From positions 6,956 to 64,000 of the forward strand of contig JAWMAR010000541.1 in assembly GCA_036785375.1 (NCBI GenBank): a stretch of 57,045 bases of DNA, given 5' to 3'. The notes under the pieces were generated by a model. That model made no database searches. It worked only from the letters and a program-made list of their open reading frames with translations, and was not told the origin of the DNA. Origin of the DNA: Leucoraja ocellata (Eukaryota). A program made the position numbers and the translations under genes. This document shows positions 16,347-54,436 of this stretch, piece by piece. Each line of letters begins with the position of its first letter. Positions within the stretch are counted from its first letter, which is position 1.

Positions 16347-16681
16347 TATACATCCCCTCGCTTCCAAGAAGGATTTTATGGAATGTTCTTGTATTATCTG
16401 TGGTTGTTATACAAGTGATACAGTGTGGAAACAGGCCCTTCATCCCAACTTGCCCACACCAGCCAACATGTCCCATGTACACTAGTCCCACCTGCCTGCA
16501 TTTGGCCCATATCCCACCAAATGTGCCCTATCCATGCACCTGTCTAACATCACTGTCTACCAGCACCTTGAGACGATGGTGATGTAACCACACCACCAGT
16601 ACAATGGGTGCCTGTTTCCCTGTGTGTGCATTTCCACAGAACACTGTGTCACAAGCTCGGCAACGACCACACATCTCTCAC

Positions 16682-16756
16682 CTGTCACCTCCACACTGGC
16701 TCCTGTGATGTAGCTGCTGTCGTCAGATGCCAAGAAAGCACACACGGAGGCAACCT
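16682..16756 (-). CDS. HSD17B8: HSD17B8 exon 8 (EVASVCAFLASDDSSYITGASVEVT-G)
   Basis: CAG acceptor and GTGAGA donor, 75 nt, phase 1-1; FLAS...YITG motif. Confidence 0.94.
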
Positions 16757-17840
16757 CTGTAGGAGAGACACAGGGAGTGAGACTAGTTACAGACGGAGGC
16801 AGTGAGACTGGGGACAGGCGGAGGCAACTTCTGTAGGAGGGACACAGGCAGTGAGACTGGGTACAGACGGAGGCAACCTCCGTAGGAGAGACACAGGCAG
16901 TGAGACTAGTTACAGGCAGTGAGACTGGGTACAGGCAGAGGTAGCCTATGTAGGAGGGACACAGGCAGTGAGACAGTACAGGCAGAGGCAGTGAGACTGG
17001 GTAGAGGCAGAGGCAACTTCTGTAGGAGGGACACAGGGAGTGAGACTAGTTACAGACGGCGAGACAGGGTACAGGCGGAGGCAGTGAGACCGGGGACAGG
17101 CGGGTGCAACCTCTGTAGGAGGGACACAGACAGTGAGACAGTACAGGCGGAGAGACAGGGTACAGGCGGAGGCAGTGAGACTGGGTACAGGCGGAGGCAG
17201 TGAGACTAGTTACAGGCAGTGAGACCGGGGACAGGCGGAGGCAACCTCTGTAGGAGGGACACAGGCAGTGAGACAGTACAGGCGGAGGCAGTGAGACTGG
17301 GTACAGGCGGAGGAAACCTCTAGGAGGGACACAGGCAGTGAGACTGGGTACAGGCGGAGGCAACCTCTGTAGGAGGATACAGACAGCAAGACTAGGTACA
17401 GGCAGCACGACAAGACACAGGCAACAAAACTGGGGACAGGCGGAGGGAACCTCTGTAGGGGGATACAGGCAGTGAGACAGTACAGACGGAGGCAGTGAGA
17501 CTGGGTACAGGCGGAGGCAGTGAGATTGGGTACAGGCGGAGGCAGTGAGACTGGGTACAGACGGAGGCAGTGAGACAGTACAGACGACAAGATTGTACAG
17601 GCGGAGGCAACCTCTGGGAGGCACACAGGCAGCAAGACTAGGTACATGCAGCACGACAGGACACAGGCAACAAAACTGGTTACAGGCGGAGGGAACCTCT
17701 GTAGGGGGATACAGGCAGCAAGACTAGGTACAGGCAGCACGACAAGACACAGGCAACTAAACTGGTTACAGGCAGAGGGAACCTGTGTAGGGGGATACGT
17801 ACAGTGAGATGGGACACTACCTGGACAGAGGGACAGGCAT
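16746..17840 (-). repeat. complex minisatellite copying the HSD17B8 exon 8 acceptor
   Basis: About a dozen variants of tctcctacag|AGGTTGCCTCCG interleaved with GTCTCACTGCCTCCGCCTGTACCCA units. Confidence 0.9.
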
Positions 17841-21408: not shown

Positions 21409-22694
21409 TCTCGTTTCTCTTTCCCCTGACTCTCACTGAAGAAGGGTCTTGACCAGAAACGTCACCTATTCCGTTTCTCCAGAGATGCTGCCTGACCCGT
21501 TGAGTTACTCCAGCCTCTTGTGTCTATCTTCAGCATAATCAGGGATCAGTCTCACCCGCTCGCTCCCTCTTCTCCCCTCTCACATGAGGCAAGAGGTACA
21601 GAAGTTTGAAAACGCATGCATAGAAACATTAAAAATAGGTGCAGGAGGCCATTCGGCCCTTCGAGCCAGCACTGCCATTCATTGTGATCGTGGCTGATCA
21701 TCCCCAACCTGCCTTCTCCCCATATCCCTTGATTCCATTAGCCCCAAGAGCTGTATCTAACTCTCTCTTAAATCCATCATGTGGCTTGGCCTCCACTGCC
21801 TTCTGTGGCAGGGAATGCCTCTAGATTCAGGGACAGTTTCTTCCCAGCTGTTATCAGGCAACTGACCTGTCCTTCAACTAGCTAGAGAGTGGTCCTGACC
21901 TCCCATCTATCTCATTGGAGATCTACAAACTCTCTTGAATCGGGTTATTTGGACCTCAATGTTATATCTTGTACGAAGCGTTGTACACTATATCTCTGTA
22001 CAGTGGACAGCTTGATTGTACCATGGTGTGGAATGAGCTTCCAGTGGAAGTGGTGGAGGCAGGTTCGTTGGTATCATTTAAAAATAAATTGGATAGGCAT
22101 ATGGAAGAAAAGGGAATGGAGGGTTATGGTATGAGTGCAGGCAGGTGGGACTAAGGGAAAAAAGTTGTTCGGCACGGACTTGTAGGGCCGAGATGGCCTG
22201 TTTCCGTGCTGTAATTGTTATATGGTTATATGGTTAATGGACTGGGCAGTGTTTACTGTTCTCTGTAATCTCACTTTGACCTCATTGTTTGAACCTTTGG
22301 GGGGAGGGGGGGGGGGGGGGGAGAAGAGGGTGTTTGTAAAGATGGGGGTTAGGATGGGGGCAGCTTCACCACACCTCCCCCCCCCCCCCTACTGCCCCCT
22401 TGTGGAAAGCTCCTCCCTTCCCCCTCAGGCCCAGACGACCCATGATGGGCGGGGGGGGGGGGGGGTATTTAACTTTCTGCCCCAGTACAGGCACGTCCTG
22501 ATGTGTGAAGAATCTGTGTCCATGGTATATAGTGATACAGTGTGGAAACAGGCCCTTCAGCCCAACTTGCCCACGCCGACCAACATGCACCCGTCTAAAT
22601 GTTTGTACACCTTGCGATAGTGTGTGTTGTGGCCTGGCGGAGGGAGCGGTGTGGTCCACGCGCCACCACTGTGGGGATTCACCGCTGGCCTTAC

Positions 22695-22779
22695 CTTCTC
22701 CAGCACCTTGGGGGGCACCTTGGCTGCCATCCGTGTGTCAATGAACCCCGGCACGATGGCGTTACACCGGATGCCAAAC
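22695..22779 (-). CDS. HSD17B8: HSD17B8 exon 6 (FGIRCNAIVPGFIDTRMAAKVPPKVLEK)
   Basis: AG/GTAAGG boundaries, 85 nt, phase 2->0; IRxN..PGFIxT motif. Confidence 0.95.
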
Positions 22780-23091
22780 CTGCAGGCACAGTCCGTCAGT
22801 AGAGATGATCAGGCCGAATTTTAGTTAAAAATATAAGAAGATATTACAATAGGTTTCTGGGCTAGCTTACAGCTTATATTTAGTGTCAAATTAGGCTTGC
22901 CTCAGGTTGCAGTGTGTGGGATAATAAATACCATAACATTGTCTCCCAAGTGAGGAAGTGACAGAGAGGAAGAGAGACATAGCTAGTCACATCTTTGAAG
23001 TAAGATGCCATAAACCAAATGGCCTATGTTTATGAGGGACCAAGTGACAGAGAGGAAGAGAGACATAGCTAGTCACATCTTTGAAGTAAGA

Positions 23092-24554: not shown

Positions 24555-25005
24555 ATAGAGACACACACACACACGCAGACATAGACACAGAGGGACACAC
24601 TCACACGCGCAGACATAGACACACAGGCAGATATAGACACACACGCAGATATAGACACACAGGGACACACACGCAGATATAGACACAGGGACACACACGC
24701 AGATATAGACACACACGCAGATATAGACACACACGCAGATATAGACACACACGTAAATATAGACACACACGCAGATATAGACACACAGGGACACACACGC
24801 AGATATAGACACACACGCAGATATAGACACACAGGGCCACACACGCAGATATAGACACACAGGGACACACACGCAGATATAGACACACAGGGACACACAC
24901 GCAGATATAGACACACAGGGACACACACGCAGATATAGACACACAGGGACACACACGCAGATATAGACACACAGGGACACACACGCAGATATAGACACGC
25001 ACACA
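24555..25005. repeat. minisatellite (ACACACGCAGATATAGACACACAGGG-type units) directly after the HSD17B8 exon 5 donor
   Basis: Visible 20/30-bp tandem units. Confidence 0.9.
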
Positions 25006-25009
25006 ATAC

Positions 25010-25095
25010 CTGGCCAGCTCCTTTGCGCTGCTCTTTGTCAGGGCCACCACTCCTGCCTTCGATGCCGTGTAATTGGTCTGTCCCACGTTTCCAAC
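25010..25095 (-). CDS. HSD17B8: HSD17B8 exon 5 ([29 protein letters not shown])
   Basis: AG/GT boundaries, 86 nt, phase 0->2; catalytic YxxxK (YTASK). Confidence 0.96.
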
Positions 25096-25487
25096 CTGTT
25101 GTAGGACAGCATCATCATTAGCAATCTCCACACTGGCCAATAAAGCAGCTCCTCCAGCCCCCCCCCGCCCCCACATACCACACACACACATGTGCGCACA
25201 CACGCATGTGCGCACACACACACGCACGCACACAGATCCGCATGTGCACCCAAACAACCCTCCCCTCGCCCCCAACCTACTCCAACCCCTCACACACACA
25301 CCTCCCCCCCCCCACTCCCCAACCTCACTCCAACCGCACGCACACACATACCCCTCCCCTCCCCCACCTCACTCCAAACCACCCCCTCATAGACACACAT
25401 TCCCCTCCCCCTCCTCTACACCACTCTAAACCACTCCGCCCCCCTTCAATCGCCCCCCTCCCCTGCCTCACTCTAAACCCAATCGCT

Positions 25488-26960
25488 GCCCACTGTGCCC
25501 CGTCCCTACCTTGCCCACGATGCTGCCCCCTGCCCCCTGTCCCTACCTTGCCCACGATGCTGCCCACACTGCCCACTGTCCCTGCCTTGCCCACAATGCT
25601 GCCCCCTGTCCCCACCTTGCCCACAATGCTGCCCCCTGTCCCCACCTTGCCCACGATGCTGCCCCCTGTCCCTGCCTTGCCCACAATGCTGCCCCCTGTC
25701 CCTACCTTGCCCACAATGCTGCCCCCTGCCCCCCCCTTGCCCACGATGCAGCCCCCTGTCCCCACCTTGCCCACGATGCAGCCCCCTGTCCCTACCTTGC
25801 CCACTGTGCCCCCTGTCCCCACCTTGCCCACAATGCTGCCCCGTCCCCACCTTGCCCACGATGCTGCCCCGTCCCCACCTTGCCCACGATGCTGCCCCCT
25901 GTCCCCACCTTGCCCACTGTGCCCCCTGTCCCTACCTTGCCCACGATGCTGCCCCCTGTCCCTACCTTGCCCACTGTGCCCCCTGTCCCTACATTGCCCA
26001 CGATGCTGCCCCCTGTCCCCACCTTGCCCACTGTGCCCACTGTCCCTACCTTGCCCACTGTGCCCCCTGTCCCTACCTTGCCCACAATGCTGCCCCCTGT
26101 CCCTACCTTGCCCACCATGCCCCCTGTCCCCACCTTGCCCACCATGCCCCCTGTCCCCACCTTGCCCACAATGCTGCCCCCTGTCCCTACCTTGCCCCCT
26201 GTCCCCACCTTGCCCACAATGCTGCCCACTGTCCCCACCTTGCCCACCATGCCCCCTGTCCCCACCTTGCCCACCATGCCCCCTGTCCCCACCTTGCCCA
26301 CAATGCTGCCCCCTGTCCCTACCTTGCCCCCTGTCCCCACCTTGCCCACAATGCTGCCCACTGTCCCCACCTTGCCCACCATGCCCCCTGTCCCCACCTT
26401 GCCCACGATGCTGCCCCCTGTCCCCACCTTGCCCACAATGCTGCCCCCTGTCCCCACCTTGCCCACTGTGCCCCCTGTCCCCACCTTGCCCACTGTGCCC
26501 CCTGTCCCCTACCTTGCCCACTGTGCCCCCTGTCCCTACCTTGCCCACGATGCTGCCCCCTGTCCCCACCTTGCCCACGATGCTGCCCCCTGTCCCCACC
26601 TTGCCCACAATGCTGCCCCCTGTCCCCACCTTGCCCACTGTGCCCCCTGTCCCCACCTTGCCCACGATGCTGCCCCCTGTCCCCACCTTGCCCACGATGC
26701 TGCCCCCTGTCCCCACCTTGCCCACAATGCTGCCCCCTGTCCCCACCTTGCCCACTGTGCCCCCTGTCCCCACCTTGCCCACGATGCTGCCCTCTATCCC
26801 TACCTTGCCCATGATGCTGCCCATTGTCCCAACCTTGCCCACTGTGCCCACTGTCCCTACCTTGCCCACAATGCTGCCCACTGTCCCCACCTTGCCCACA
26901 ATGCTGCCCCCTGTCCCCACAATGCTGCCCCCTGTCCCTACCTTGCCCACGATGCTGCCC
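25488..26960 (-). repeat. 27/30-bp minisatellite copying the HSD17B8 exon 4 end and splice donor
   Basis: Unit GGCAGCATCGTGGGCAAG|GT(A/G)GGGACAGGG, roughly 50 copies; it produces the 400-680-aa repetitive ORFs in the track. Confidence 0.95.
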
Positions 26961-36050: not shown

Positions 36051-36461
36051 ATGTATGAATGACTAACAATGAATTAATTATGAACAGAGACACAAAGCAT
36101 AGCAGATGCTAGAATCTTGAACAAAACACTAAATGCTGGAGTACCTCAGCGGGTCAGGCAGCATCTCTGGATAGAAGGAATGGGTGAAGTTTCAGGTTGA
36201 GACCCTTCTTCAGGCTGATAGTAACTTTTTCCACACAAAGGGTGGTGGGTGGCTGGAACAAGCTGCCAGAGAAGATAGTTGAGGCAGGGACTATCCCAAC
36301 GTTCAAGAAACAGTTTGACAAGTAAATGGAGAGGACAGATTTGGAGTGGACCAAACTCAGACAGGTGGGACTAGTGGAGCTGGGACATGTTGGCTGGTTA
36401 TGGCAAGCTGGGCCAAAGGGCCTGTGTGCATCACTCTATGACTCTGAGGCCAGTGCCTCAC

Positions 36462-36658
36462 CTGTACCGCAGAGACCAGGCTGTGGACACTCTGCGGGCA
36501 GGACACATCCGCCACAAACACAGAGTGCCGCTGATCACCGTGGGGCAAGCTCCGCAGCGTTTCCTCAGCCGAGGATTCGTCCACGTCCACCACCACCACC
36601 GCCGATCCCTCCTCGGCAAACCGCTGGCACACGGCTCGCCCAATGCCACTCCCTCCAC
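36462..36658 (-). CDS. HSD17B8: HSD17B8 exon 2 (GGGSGIGRAVCQRFAEEGSAVVVVDVD...ADVS...AVQ)
   Basis: CAG acceptor and GTGAGG donor; 197 nt, phase 1->0; completes the TGGGSGIG NAD-binding motif. Confidence 0.95.
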
Positions 36659-36764
36659 CTGCACCAAAACCACATGGGCATTACTGGCACGTTGCCCACG
36701 GATAGAGCAACAGGGGGCAAACACAGAGAGATCTGGGCACTGGCTGGGGGAGGATGCATGGTAC

Positions 36765-37340
36765 TCAGGGAGAGGGCGGGGTGGGGGGCAGGGATAGAGG
36801 GGGGCAGCGGTGGACAGGGGGCTGGGAGGAGAGAGGGGGTGGGTAGGGGACGGAGAGGGGAGAGGGGTTAGGGAAGGGGGGAGAGGGGATGGGGAGGGGG
36901 GAGAAGGGATGGGGAGGGGGAGAAGGCATGGGGAGAGGGGTGTGGGGGAGGGGTTGTGGAGTGGAGAGAGGGTGTGGGAGAGGGGTTGTGGAGTGGAGAG
37001 TGGTAGGGAAGGTGGGGAGAGGCGAGAGGGAGGGGATGGGGAGAGGGGGTGGGGAGGGGACAGTGGTAGGTAAGGTGGGAGAGGTGATGGGGAGAGGGGA
37101 GAGGGGGTGTGGGGGATGGGGGAGAGGGGGAGAGAGGGTGTGGGAGAAGAGCTGTGGAGGGGAGAGTGGTAGGGAAGGTGGGGAGAGGCGATGGGGAGTG
37201 GTAGAGGGGTAGGGAAAGGGAGGGGACGAGAGTGATAGGGGAGGAGGGAGAGGGGTAGACATGAGGCAGGGGAGTAGGAAGGGAGAGGGGTGGGGGAGGG
37301 AGGAGGGGCAGAGATAGGGAGTGTGTGTGAGGGGGGGAAC
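36765..37340. repeat. polypurine G-rich low-complexity tract in HSD17B8 intron 1
   Basis: Predominantly G/A on the plus strand. Confidence 0.85.
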
Positions 37341-37664: not shown

Positions 37665-38185
37665 ACACTGGCCCCGCCCACACACTGGCCCCGCCCACAC
37701 ACCGGTCCCGCCCACATGACGACACTGGCCCCGCCCACATGACGACACCGGTCCCGCCCACATGGCGACACTGGCCCCGCCCACACACTGGCCCCGCCCA
37801 CAGGACCCGTCACACCGGCCCCGCCCACACACTGGCCCCGCCCACACACTGGCCCCGCCCACACACTGGCCCCGCCCACACACTGGCCCGGCACCGGCCC
37901 CGCTCACACACTGGCCACGCCCACAGGCCCGACACACTGGCCCCGCCCACATACAGGCCCCGCCCACACACCGGCCCCGCCCACAGCCCCGACACACTGG
38001 CCCCGCCCATACAGGCCCCGCCCACACAGGGACCCGCCCACGTGTACGACACACTGGCCCCGTCCCTCTAGTAGCCCCGCCCCTAGTCACGCCCACATGA
38101 TCTGGCCCCGCCTCTCCACAGTCCCGTCACACGTCCCTGGTTCCCGCCCACTGACCCCGCCCCGGCCCAAGGCCCCGCCCCCATT
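37665..38185. repeat. GC-box minisatellite (unit about ACACACTGGCCCCGCCC) in the HSD17B8 promoter CpG island
   Basis: More than 20 visible CCCGCCC/GGGCGGG copies starting about 20 bp upstream of the ATG. Confidence 0.9.
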
Positions 38186-40675: not shown

Positions 40676-41662
40676 AGATTCAGATTCAGATTCAGATTCA
40701 ATTTTAATTGTCATTGTCAGTGTACAGTACAGCGACAACGAAATGCATTTAGCATCTCCCTGGAAGAGCGACATAGCAAATGATTTGAATAAATAATAAT
40801 AAGTGTCCGAGGGGGGGGTGGTGATTGGCAGTCGCCGAGGTACGTTGTTGAGTAGAGTGACAGCCGCCGGAAAGAAGCTGTTCCTCGACCTGCTGGTTCG
40901 GCAACGGAGAGACCTGTAGCGCCTCCCGGATGGTAGGAGGGTAAACAGTCCATGGTTGGGGTGAGAGCAGTCCTTGGCGATGCTGAGCGCCCTCCGCAGA
41001 CAGCGCTTGCTTTGGACAGACTCAATGGAGGGGAGCGAGGAACCGGTGATGCGTTGGGCAATTTTCACCACCCTCTGCAATGCCTTCCGGTCGGAGACAG
41101 AGCAGTTGCCATACCATACTGTGATGCAGTTGGTAAGGATGCTCTCGATGGTGCAGCGGTAGAAGTTCACCAGGATCTGAGGAGACAGATGGACCTTCTT
41201 CAGTCTCCTCAGGAAGAAGAGACGCTGGTGAGCCTTCTTGATCAGAGTAGAGGTATTGTGGGTCCAAGAGAGGTCATCGGAGATGTTGACTCCCAGGAAC
41301 CTGAAGCTAGAAACACGTTCCACCTCCGTCCCGTTAATGTGGATGGGGGTGTGCGTGCCGCCTCTGGACTTCCTGAAGTCTACAATGAGCTCCTTGGTCT
41401 TCTTGGAGTTAAGGGCCAGGTTGTTGTCAGCGCACCGTGCTGCTAAGTGCTGGACCTCCTCCCTGTAGGCCAGCTCATCGTTGTTGCTGATGAGGCCAAT
41501 CACCGTTGTATCATCTGCATACTTGATGATGGTGTTAGTACCATGTACAGGTGTGCAGTCATAGGTGAAGAGGGAGTAGAGGAGGGGGCTCAGCACACAG
41601 CCCTGAGGAACGCCGGTGTTCAGGGTGAGGGTTGAAGAGGTGTGCTTGTCTAACCTCACAGA
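40676..41662 (-). mobile_element. Rex1/Babar LINE (second family) RT fragment with open frame
   Basis: GVPQGCVLSPLL and YADD RT motifs, KTKELIVDFRK; (TGAATC)n tail. Confidence 0.9.
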
Positions 41663-41735
41663 CTGGGGAATTAACTCTTGACTCCTGTGACATGACCCTT
41701 GACGTGTCTGTTCTGAGTCGATGTGCTGGTGATAT

Positions 41736-42653
41736 TTACACCCCTGGCCCTGCATCTTCCTGGGTGGGGAGCCAGTGACGGTGGGGAGGGGTCAGACGCC
41801 ACCATGCACAGGCGGCAGTGGTGAGAGCCAGCACTGGGATCTCAGGGTTCCCCAGCAGCAAGCACCAGGTGGCGGTGAATCCCAGCAGGGCGACGGTGTA
41901 TCCCAGCAGGGCAGCTGTGGGCCAGGGCTGGGAGTAGGGGCGTTGGAGAGCCAGGGCAAGGGTGAGGGTGCCGGGAGCAGCCCACAGGAGGCCGGATGGG
42001 GCAGCCGGCAGGAGGCACAGCCCGACATAGCCCTGGGCCCCACAGCACCATCGCCACAGCCCCGCGGCCCTGCAGAGGCCCAGCAGAGAGCAGCAAGAGC
42101 CGGCGACTCCCAGCACAGCACAGCACACCCACCAGACCCACACGTCCGTGTCCGACAGCCACAGCAGGCTGAGAAAACCCCCCCAGCTCAGCGCCAGCAG
42201 AAGTGGATGGGCTGGACCTCTCCACACCACGGCCACACAGGCAGCGACCACACACATCCCAGCAGGCCCAGCACAGGCCAGCAGGAGGCAGGAGAGCCCC
42301 ACAAAGCCCAGCGCCCCGCAGGAATCCCAGCAGGCCCGGGCCAGGCGGGTGTGCCCCAGCAGAGACCAGCAGAGGCCACCGGATCCCAGCAAGGCACAGC
42401 AGACCAGGTAGAGCTCGGCACTGCCCGGAGAGGCCGCGGGAAGAGCCAGGAGCAGCGCCAGGCCCAGCCATTCCCAACGCCGGCTCTCCCGGCCACCTCC
42501 TCCAGGTGCGCCCACCTTGAGGGGCCGCTGCAGAGGGTCCACCCTCAGCCCAGGGTCCGCATGAGGGAGGGGTACATGGGCAAGCTGAACACTGGAGGCA
42601 CAGACATGGGACATCCCACCACAAGCATAGAGGGCCTTTAGCTGTCCCTCCAA
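41736..42653 (-). CDS. uncharacterised multi-pass membrane protein, probably a large terminal exon; true 5' boundary uncertain
   Basis: 305-codon open frame in GC-rich non-repetitive DNA with many Leu/Cys/Trp/Gly-rich hydrophobic segments and a 92-aa internal repeat. The listed start is TTG; a plausible acceptor (gtgcctccag) lies near 42592. Confidence 0.7.
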   Translation of the reverse strand: MEGQLKALYACGGMSHVCASSVQLAHVPLPHADPGLRVDPLQRPLKVGAPGGGGRESRRWEWLGLALLLALPAASPGSAELYLVCCALLGSGGLCWSLLGHTRLARACWDSCGALGFVGLSCLLLACAGPAGMCVVAACVAVVWRGPAHPLLLALSWGGFLSLLWLSDTDVWVWWVCCAVLGVAGSCCSLLGLCRAAGLWRWCCGAQGYVGLCLLPAAPSGLLWAAPGTLTLALALQRPYSQPWPTAALLGYTVALLGFTATWCLLLGNPEIPVLALTTAACAWWRLTPPHRHWLPTQEDAGPGV

Positions 42654-42907
42654 CCCAACCCAGCTACAGTAGCCCTGGGCAATGTTGCCAAGCTGGAAAA
42701 GGCACGGAGAAGATTTACAAGGATGTTGCCAGGAGGACAGGTGTGAGCTACAGGGAGAGGTTGCGTTGGCTGGGACTCTATTCCCTGGAGCGCAGGAGGG
42801 TGAGGGGTGATCTGAGAGAGGTGTACTAAATCATGAGAGGAATAGTTGCATAAAGTGTCTTGCCCAGAGCAGGGGAATCGAGGACCAGAGGACATAGGTT
42901 TATGGTG

Positions 42908-43003
42908 GTTACACAAAAAAGCTGGAGAAACTCAGCGGGTGCAGCAGCATCTATGGAGCGAAGGAAATAGGCAACGTTTTGGGCCGAAACCCTTCTTCAG
43001 ACT
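42908..43003 (-). mobile_element. Penelope-derived insert in an old CR1 (core has GAAA->AAAA)
   Basis: Same family sequence as 3448-3581. Confidence 0.75.
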
Positions 43004-43220
43004 GGGTTTAAGGTGAAAGGGATAAGATTCAATAGCAACCTGTTTCCATGCTGTATCACTCTATAACTCTCTGGCTGTGTCTGTACTGGTCCAGGTGGAG
43101 TTGGTGGGGTGAGGAGGTGGGGACAGTGTGGTGGTCTCAGTTGCTGGGGGTGGGGGGGAGAAGATGGGGCGATATCCCCCTCTTCCTGCCGAGCCACTCT
43201 CTCACCCACCCCGGGCCCAC

Positions 43221-53194: not shown

Positions 53195-54436
53195 TGGATG
53201 GGATGGGGGTTCAGTGGGGGGTGGGGGTTCAGTGGGGGTTCAGTGGGGGTTCAGTGGGGGTTCAGTGGGGGTTCGGGTGGGGGATGGGGGTTCAGTGGGG
53301 GTTCAGTGGGGGTTCGGTGGGGGGTGGGGGTTCAGTGGGGGTTCAGTGGGGGTTCGGTGGGGGGTGGGGGTTCAGTGGGGGGTTCAGTGGGGGTTCAGTG
53401 GGGGGATCGGTGGGGGGATGGGGGTTCAGTGGGGGTTCAGTGGGGGTTCGGTGGGGGGGTGGGGGGTTCAGTGGGGGTTCAGTGGGGGTTCAGTGGGGGT
53501 TCAGTGGGGGTTCAGTGGGGGTTCAGTGGGGGATCGGTGGGGGATGGGGGTTCAGTGGGGGGGTTCAGTGGGGGTTCAGTGGGGGTTCAGTGGGGGTTCA
53601 GTGGGGGATGGGGGTTTGAGTGGGGGATGGGGGTTCAGTGGGGGTTCAGTGGGGGATGGGGGTTCAGTGGGGGATGGGGGTTCAGTGGGGGTGGGGGTTC
53701 AGTGGGGGATGGGGGTTCAGTGGGGGTTCAGTGGGGGTGGGGGTTCAGTGGGGGAATGGGGGTTTCAGTGGGGGTTCAGTGGGGGTTCAGTGGGGGATGG
53801 GGGTTCAGTGGGGGATGGGGGGTTCAGTGGGGGATGGGGGTTCAGTGGGGGTGGGGGTTCAGTGGGGGATGGGGGTTCAGTGGGGGATGGGGGTTCAGTG
53901 GGGGATGGGGGTTCAGTGGGGGATGGGGGTTCAGTGGGGGGATGGGGGGTTCAGTGGGGGATGGGGGGTTCAGTGGGGGATGGGGGTTCAGTGGGGGTTC
54001 AGTGGGGGTTCAGTGGGGGATGGTGTTTGAGTGGGGGGTGGGGTTTGAAGTGGGGGTGGGGTTTGAGTGGGGGGGGGGGTTAGTACGGATGGGGTTTGAG
54101 TGGGGGTGGGGGTTTGAGTGGGGGTGGGGGTTTGAGTGGGGGTGGGGGTTTGAGTGGGGGTGGGGGTTTGAGTGTGGGTGAGTGGGGGTGGGGGTTTGAG
54201 TGGGGGTGGGGGTTTGAGTGGGGGGGGTGGGGGGGGTTTGAGTGGGGGTGGGGTTGGAGTGGGGGATGGGGGTTTGAGTGGGGGTTTGAGTGGGGGTTTG
54301 AGTGGGGGGATGGGGGTTTGAGTGGGGGATGGGGGGTTTGAGTGGGGGTTTTGAGTGGGGTGGGGTTTGAGTGGGGGATGGGGTTTGAGTGGGGGGTTTG
54401 AGTGGGGTTGGTGTTTTGGGTGGGGGATGGGTGGGG
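53195..54436 (+). repeat. G-rich minisatellite (GGGGGTTCAGT grading into GGGGTTTGAGT) filling the leader-IgV intron
   Basis: About 1.2 kb of ~11-bp units with G4-G6 runs. Confidence 0.95.

Follow-up and report, generated by a model that had tools for sequence, protein, structure and literature searches.

The window analysed here is a stretch of 57,045 nucleotides from the skate Leucoraja ocellata (contig JAWMAR010000541.1 of assembly GCA_036785375.1, positions 6,956 to 64,000), and it contains, in a major histocompatibility complex (MHC) setting, a minus-strand open reading frame (ORF) of 292 codons. Pairwise and profile comparisons show that this ORF is homologous to the predicted C-terminal multi-helix membrane domain of elasmobranch TRIM-like proteins, which are composed of RING, B-box, coiled-coil and PRY/SPRY parts. 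In our interpretation it derives, by truncation, from a so far unrecognised class of membrane-anchored TRIM proteins; it is likely to be still coding and possibly a relic. In its most specific form, this interpretation holds that the ORF is the TRIM-linked membrane domain preceded by a decayed SPRY stub of 39 residues, and that it would still be translated, most simply as a stand-alone membrane protein of 292 residues of the Leucoraja type; we regard this form as evenly poised between right and wrong. The parent proteins are already public under automatic TRIM-like names; their membrane domain and its truncation in skates appear to have gone unrecognised. Full-text searches of one collection of papers found no description of a TRIM protein with a multi-helix membrane domain in cartilaginous fishes.

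Homology to a TRIM-linked membrane domain

In a word-index search the ORF matched only the Leucoraja erinacea model XP_055487152.1, annotated as 'uncharacterized protein LOC129694460' (96% identity). Longer relatives were sought in this way with the membrane domain of the window, and none appeared among 7999 scored candidates. A full HMMER scan of 1.84 billion representatives gave two matches, namely this Leucoraja model and a 743-aa 'TRIM69-like' protein of the sawshark Pristiophorus japonicus. Residues 488-735 of the sawshark protein match the ORF (phmmer E 4.2e-40, 48% identity), and its RING, B-box, coiled-coil, PRY and SPRY domains are found within residues 7-448. When the whole open frame was compared with this protein by BLASTP, the alignment ran from inside the SPRY domain to the end of the protein (E 1e-55). 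Using the sawshark tail as query, a region search detected the tail, a helical domain of about 250 residues, in six proteins, five from sharks and one from a stingray, with E 1.7e-76 or better and under the predicted names 'TRIM69-like', 'TRIM39-like' or 'zinc-binding protein A33-like': those of P. japonicus and Heptranchias perlo (743 aa each), Heterodontus francisci (747), Cetorhinus maximus (778), Scyliorhinus canicula (759) and the stingray Hypanus sabinus (629). In the precomputed Pfam lists, RING, PRY and SPRY are present in each of the five shark proteins, a B-box in four and a TRIM coiled-coil in three, and the stingray model has PRY/SPRY only. A profile built from these six full-length proteins matched the domain of the window over profile positions 506-737 with an i-E of 5.1e-56.

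The nine-row alignment of the domain contains 69 invariant columns. Among the 87 columns that are invariant in the six full-length proteins, the window keeps 64 and has changed 23, and at the variable columns it is identical to the stingray in 48 cases out of 141. Over about 225 columns its membrane domain is 42-50% identical to those of the six proteins, with which it also shares the internal duplication described below and the succession, in one frame, of the SPRY end and the membrane domain. It differs from them in its extent, since they count 629-778 residues with PRY/SPRY and, in the sharks, RING, whereas the ORF retains only the SPRY stub; moreover, its linker is much shorter (gaps of 28 and 6 columns) and it bears an insertion of 7 residues. 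The closest relative, XP_055487152.1, has the same start and the same length of 292 residues. It is a predicted model, and it differs at scattered residues from both copies of the ORF in the present genome, so that it is another allele, another copy or another species.

The region just upstream of the membrane domain was compared with the end of the SPRY domain. The position-specific BLOSUM62 score of the stub was 39.5, compared with -20 +/- 7.4 for shuffled sequences, none of which reached this value in 2000 trials, and the other two frames of the same region scored -23.5 and -25. In addition, the ATG of the ORF coincides with the Met of a conserved SPRY motif. Together, the score and the position of the Met indicate a single frame running from the end of SPRY through the linker into the membrane domain, as in sharks.

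These results bear on the first-pass annotation, which had been made from the sequence alone. It could not assign the protein to any family, a statement that falls with the clear orthologue now found in a known one. It had further suggested a lineage-specific gene, which holds in modified form as a lineage-restricted domain: every match obtained in the 1.84 billion representatives and in the region search is elasmobranch, with none beyond this group. The idea that the product could be a transporter or a receptor found no backing in the Pfam, PDB sequence, Foldseek and Atlas searches, all of which were empty or insignificant. With E allowed up to 10, Pfam returned no family for the ORF, nor did any of eight domain sequences match a family with E up to 1; the absence of any Zip match within these limits agrees with its exclusion of SLC39A7, the expected neighbour of HSD17B8. 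Finally, it had proposed the multi-pass tail of an Ig-family gene, by analogy with Skint proteins. A multi-pass tail of a larger immune-type gene is indeed what the homology points to, but the parent is a TRIM gene and not an Ig/Skint/BTN gene, and the scanned frames of the window gave no immunoglobulin (Ig) exon.

TRIM proteins that carry a B30.2 domain act in the cytosol as innate-immune sensors and E3 ligases, and two TRIM proteins that lack B30.2, TRIM13 and TRIM59, end in a single C-terminal transmembrane helix. By analogy, a full-length elasmobranch protein would resemble the latter two as a TRIM E3 ligase tethered to the membrane by its C-terminus; it is unlike them in possessing about 10 predicted helices after PRY/SPRY instead of a single span. 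Butyrophilins and Skint proteins, of which the latter have several membrane spans, are likewise encoded by MHC-associated immune-type genes that pair membrane spans with a B30.2 or Ig module. The order is nevertheless reversed in the elasmobranch family, where B30.2 precedes the membrane spans, and neither an Ig exon, in the scanned frames of the window, nor any similarity to these proteins in Pfam was found.

Internal repeat and predicted structure

The two copies of an internal repeat lie 92 codons apart within the membrane domain and are identical at 21 of 37 residues without gaps. The repeated segment scored 26, whereas residue shuffles gave 9.9 +/- 1.3 with a maximum of 16 (0 of 300 reached 26). 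At the DNA level, 79 of 120 positions are identical at an offset of 276, which is also the spacing of the DNA repeat family D1. Comparison of the two halves at the level of the whole family extended the match to 76 ungapped columns (hhalign probability 97.6%, E 2.7e-12). The halves being homologous at this level, the repeat is a feature of the entire family. The first-pass annotation had located the repeat exactly, its residues 84-120 and 176-212 (counted from 42653) corresponding to 42404-42294 and 42128-42018, without gaps. It had described an ungapped repeat of 92 residues; this figure is correct as the period, but the part that can be aligned covers 37 to 76 residues and not 92.

The same annotation counted roughly 7 to 9 hydrophobic segments, and a multi-pass character is also what the structure predictions give. 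An AlphaFold model based on an alignment of 8 rows displayed 10 helices, at low confidence (predicted local distance difference test, pLDDT, 55; predicted template modelling score, pTM, 0.47), and a model computed from the single sequence displayed 13 shorter helices (pLDDT 46). From the former we infer, again with low confidence, a layout that would consist of one helix, two four-helix units and one more helix. The Foldseek comparison that had been proposed as a check yielded no credible fold for this weak model, with no PDB match at E <= 0.001, a best E of 0.86 and TM-scores below 0.3. A sequence profile search of the PDB with the membrane domain gave 0 matches at E <= 1, and no usable match was obtained in the ESM Atlas for either the ORF or the shark tail.

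Truncation, coding status and rival explanations

Single-copy depth is confined to positions 41704-42672, and both flanks stand at word depths of 1e5-1e7. On the upstream side, the repeat junction lies between about 42663 and 42735, single-copy contigs extending to 42730-42733. The contigs of three related organisms pass from the ORF into the same upstream repeat, hence the junction is shared. Within this repeat DNA, a short and extremely abundant element (word depth up to about 2.6e7) is inserted over 108 nt at positions 42903-43010. On the downstream side, the word depth climbs at or below 41703, where values of about 13-38 give way to about 1e5-1e6, and a reverse-transcriptase domain was detected (RVT_1, E 2.8e-14, in the frame 41791-40676). 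The long interspersed nuclear element (LINE) that the first-pass annotation had noticed after the stop is thus recovered as an RVT_1-bearing fragment of multi-copy depth on the same strand.

We searched for the remaining parts of the ancestral gene with the six-protein profile, taking every frame of 12 aa or more in the window and in the 30 kb upstream. The PRY/SPRY body was not found in this region on either strand by tblastn, Pfam or the profile, whose positions 293-416 (PRY/SPRY) were left unmatched, and no scanned frame of the window gave a PRY or SPRY match in Pfam. Positions 1-79, which represent the RING, were unmatched in the window and in the upstream pieces L007-L009; a weak tblastn match to the RING region at 49804-49643 (E 0.6) was discarded since the profile search did not support it. 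Similarly, the middle coiled-coil exon (positions 168-248) was not found in the window or the 30 kb upstream.

These observations suggest the following scenario. The full-length proteins would use the domain to keep a cytosolic E3 ubiquitin ligase, together with its B30.2 recognition module, at the membrane. In skates, the ancestral last exon, which encoded PRY/SPRY and the membrane domain, would have lost its 5' two-thirds in a repeat-associated event, and this truncation would have removed the body of B30.2. The membrane module alone would then have stayed under relaxed purifying selection. Devoid of ligase and B30.2 parts, the skate protein could act only through its membrane module, as a membrane scaffold or a partner-binding module.

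The composition of the region calls for caution. Its coding strand is poor in A (118 A out of 1095 bases, about 11%, over the open frame and about 9% from the ATG, as the mean of three codon positions), and all six frames are free of stops across 41.8-42.6 kb. Such a low A content suppresses stops in every frame and forces a translation rich in Leu, Gly, Cys, Trp and Ala. As a consequence, the length and the hydrophobic composition of the ORF are by themselves no evidence for a gene. One could then ask whether a GC-rich, A-poor non-coding stretch merely resembles a Cys/Trp/Leu/Gly-rich membrane protein, all the more as minisatellites with long open frames make up three other GC-rich blocks of the window. 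We give this explanation next to no credence, and consider it refuted by the strong collinear homology to six elasmobranch proteins with conserved motifs. Besides, the Tandem Repeats Finder (TRF) detected only small repeats inside the ORF, with scores of 33-73, and the DNA and protein searches found just two copies in the 3.44-Gb genome. On the basis of these TRF scores, unlike those of the true arrays elsewhere in the window, the block was rejected as a minisatellite, and the copy number likewise led us to reject a high-copy or dispersed element. One of the small repeats is a 21-nt tandem duplication that accounts for the 7-residue insertion; it is confined to the three skate rows of the alignment and is lacking in the sharks and the stingray. 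One related organism, X16, is short of 21 nt at 41875, a deletion that removes this skate-specific duplication and gives back the shark length.

The second genomic copy is carried by a 38.6-kb contig, C4876, which is collinear with positions 52.4-33.0 kb of the window at 94-97% identity and is therefore a haplotig or a recent duplicate. In a 2-kb alignment of the two copies, the ORF is 96.6% identical, the upstream flank 96.8% and the LINE flank 98.9%. The 108-nt insertion at 42903-43010 is absent from the second copy, where it appears as a gap of 108 columns, so that it is recent or polymorphic.

To this genomic comparison could be added the Logan DNA contigs of six coded related organisms, which cover the ORF and whose runs all have a flat single-copy depth. 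Third codon positions account for 24 of the 43 variant sites listed for these relatives (binomial p 0.002), and 21 of the 43 variants are synonymous, where 13.7 would be expected if the same base changes were placed at random (p 0.014); our own arithmetic from the listed variants gives a rough ratio near 0.5. Counted in the other frames, synonymous variants number 8 and 10 on the minus strand and 7 and 10 on the plus strand; the plus-strand frame that shares its third positions with the ORF ties at 21 and has 6 stops. Inside the membrane domain, the only indels among those listed measure 6 nt and 21 nt. The homology to the shark proteins is maintained in one frame through the whole domain, which means that no frameshift occurred.

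The most serious competitor is a non-functional relic, that is, a decaying 3' piece of the last exon of a TRIM gene that died with the loss of PRY/SPRY and whose frame has stayed open only because A-poor sequence rarely makes stops. We find it doubtful on balance, while a number of observations speak for it and weigh against a gene that is still coding. At an A content of about 9-11%, the coding strand would keep this frame open even without selection, and indeed all six frames are open. The skate branch is accelerated: the stingray retains 87 of the 112 columns that are invariant in the five sharks and the window 67, so that 45 are changed in the skate compared with 25 in the stingray. The window and the second copy differ at 30 sites of the ORF, of which 11 are synonymous and 19 are not, a pattern that looks neutral. 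In X16, a TGG>TGA change introduces a stop at codon 281, and small non-triplet indels cluster at codons ~18-37 (net -3). In another relative, X20, the corresponding piece has 2 nt fewer than the window, at a depth of 5.9; if this difference is real, the ATG is out of frame with the membrane domain there, and the N-terminal part would be affected. The variants counted above are a best-supported subset, beyond which the two variant lists comprise 66 and 72 more rows of substitutions and 6 of indels. Repeats occupy both flanks, the RING, the middle coiled-coil and the PRY/SPRY body are missing from the region searched by profile, and no promoter is evident upstream of the ORF, the immediate upstream DNA being repeat-derived. 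Against a dead exon stand the excess of third-position and synonymous changes in exactly the frame of the ORF, the limitation of the listed indels inside the domain to those of 6 and 21 nt, and the homology to sharks, which persists in one frame over the whole length of the domain. The family-invariant columns, kept far more often than the variable ones (64/87 vs 48/141), point the same way.

Three exons of a TRIM-like gene, encoding a B-box, the start of a coiled-coil and the segment preceding PRY, were detected 21-37 kb upstream of the ORF; they share its strand and follow the expected order (Table 1). The B-box frame meets a stop about 25 codons upstream, with no RING upstream of it, and continues downstream into a proline-rich tandem repeat. 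It is conceivable that the ORF is still the last exon of this gene, joined by a splice from the pre-PRY exon about 21 kb away, in which case the product would be a protein with B-box, coiled-coil and membrane tail but no B30.2. The intact B-box, the good phase-1 donor (CAG/gtaacg) and the fact that the N-terminal 30-40 codons of the ORF are its least conserved part would fit such an arrangement. We nonetheless hold it to be unlikely. By our reading, the best-looking acceptor (ctctgcag/CGG, 42528/42527) has phase 0 and would break the frame with the phase-1 donor, for which reason it was set aside, and the only AG sites of phase 1 (GGAGGAGG around 42504-42498) have no pyrimidine tract. Moreover, the Leucoraja annotation describes a stand-alone protein of 292 aa, and neither the RING nor the middle coiled-coil exon was found in the window and 30 kb upstream.

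The interpretation as a truncated and probably still coding membrane module can be taken further. The elasmobranch proteins may be MHC-linked TRIM E3 ligases of a class so far undescribed, in which a B30.2 sensor is joined to a polytopic membrane domain that belongs to a new family and is duplicated into four plus four helices, and skates may have freed this domain as an independent gene under selection. We put this forward tentatively, as a proposal that falls somewhat short of probable. If it is true, the role of the membrane domain goes beyond anchoring, and it would work in its own right, for instance as a channel, a scaffold or a partner-binding module. About 10 membrane helices following B30.2 and conserved from sawshark to stingray would constitute a new TRIM architecture as well as a new membrane domain family, with no relative in Pfam or the PDB. 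The skate locus illustrates what follows from the loss of the sensor and ligase parts, with the membrane module alone left, and it gives the 'uncharacterized protein' of the skate annotation a clear origin.

Table 1. Positions of the features discussed in the text. Coordinates are those of the window, except for the last three rows
Feature	Position	Strand	Remarks
ORF, 292 codons	41739..42614	-	ATG 42614-42612, stop TAA 41738-41736; frame open upstream to 42830, with no stop from there down to 41739
Membrane domain	41802..42521	-	codons 32-271; homologue of the tail of elasmobranch TRIM-like proteins; ~10 helices predicted
SPRY remnant	42546..42662	-	last 39 residues of the SPRY domain, decayed; in frame with the membrane domain
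Internal repeat copy 1	42294..42404	-	codons 71-107; 71-146 at profile level
Internal repeat copy 2	42018..42128	-	codons 163-199; 163-238 at profile level; 92 codons after copy 1
21-nt tandem duplication	41873..41912	-	1.9 copies (TRF); adds 7 residues
Multi-copy repeat DNA	42673..43010	.	replaces the upstream part of the ancestral PRY/SPRY exon; word-depth jump at the bin starting 42673
5'-truncated LINE fragment with reverse-transcriptase domain	40676..41703	-	directly 3' of the ORF, same strand; lies outside the gene
MHC class I alpha1/alpha2 exon	1-441	-	PF00129, E 7.4e-16; cut by the window edge
Short-chain dehydrogenase (SDR) exons	36360-36680, 24604-25368, 22560-22808, 16560-17045	-	
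B-box exon	C541:86.4-86.8 kb (L009 2370-2762)	-	E 2.2e-8
Coiled-coil exon (coiled-coil start)	C541:79.0-79.2 kb (L008 5035-5172)	-	E 0.01
Pre-PRY exon	C541:70.3-70.7 kb (L007 6284-6721)	-	E 5.3e-8; ends in the phase-1 donor

Genomic neighbourhood

HSD17B8 is a classical MHC-linked gene. The MHC setting recognised in the first-pass annotation is borne out by the class I alpha1/alpha2 exon at the window edge and by the HSD17B8-like SDR exons. For the first of these exons, the best match among vertebrate solved structures is HSD17B8 (E 1.5e-7), level with a bacterial reductase (E 1.2e-7). The ORF is located about 5 kb upstream of the SDR gene, on the same strand. We also looked for the BTN-like exons that had been placed on the opposite strand. 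No Ig or B30.2 match was returned by Pfam on either strand for the 424 stop-to-stop frames scanned (135 + 141 + 148; minimum length 62 aa in 1-42.6 kb and 40 aa in 42.6-57 kb), and this part of the first-pass annotation could not be reproduced. Boudinot et al. 2011 (PMC3137616) describe class IV TRIM genes as clustering near the MHC, a location long recognised for TRIM genes with a B30.2 domain.

Several tandem arrays were observed in the window. A G-rich minisatellite occupies 53200-54436, with units of 11, 18 and 40 nt made of G runs with TTCAG or TTTGAG and a GC skew of up to +0.71; it could form G-quadruplexes. The others accompany the SDR gene. At 25561-26960, in an apparent intron of this gene, lies a large C-rich minisatellite with units of 30, 57 and 87 nt (about 48 copies of the 30-mer, 64-67% GC), whose open frames of 500-700 codons on both strands gave no Pfam match. 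Just upstream of the first SDR exon, two GC-rich arrays at 36852-37303 and 37665-38062, one purine-rich of GGAGGGG type and one composed of 17-nt units with GGCCCCGCCC, may represent a promoter or CpG-island region. Finally, the tandem arrays at 16797-17798 and 24559-24998, one with units of 25, 49 and 116 nt and one with an 18/28-nt unit of the ACACGCAGATATAG type, both adjoin SDR exons.

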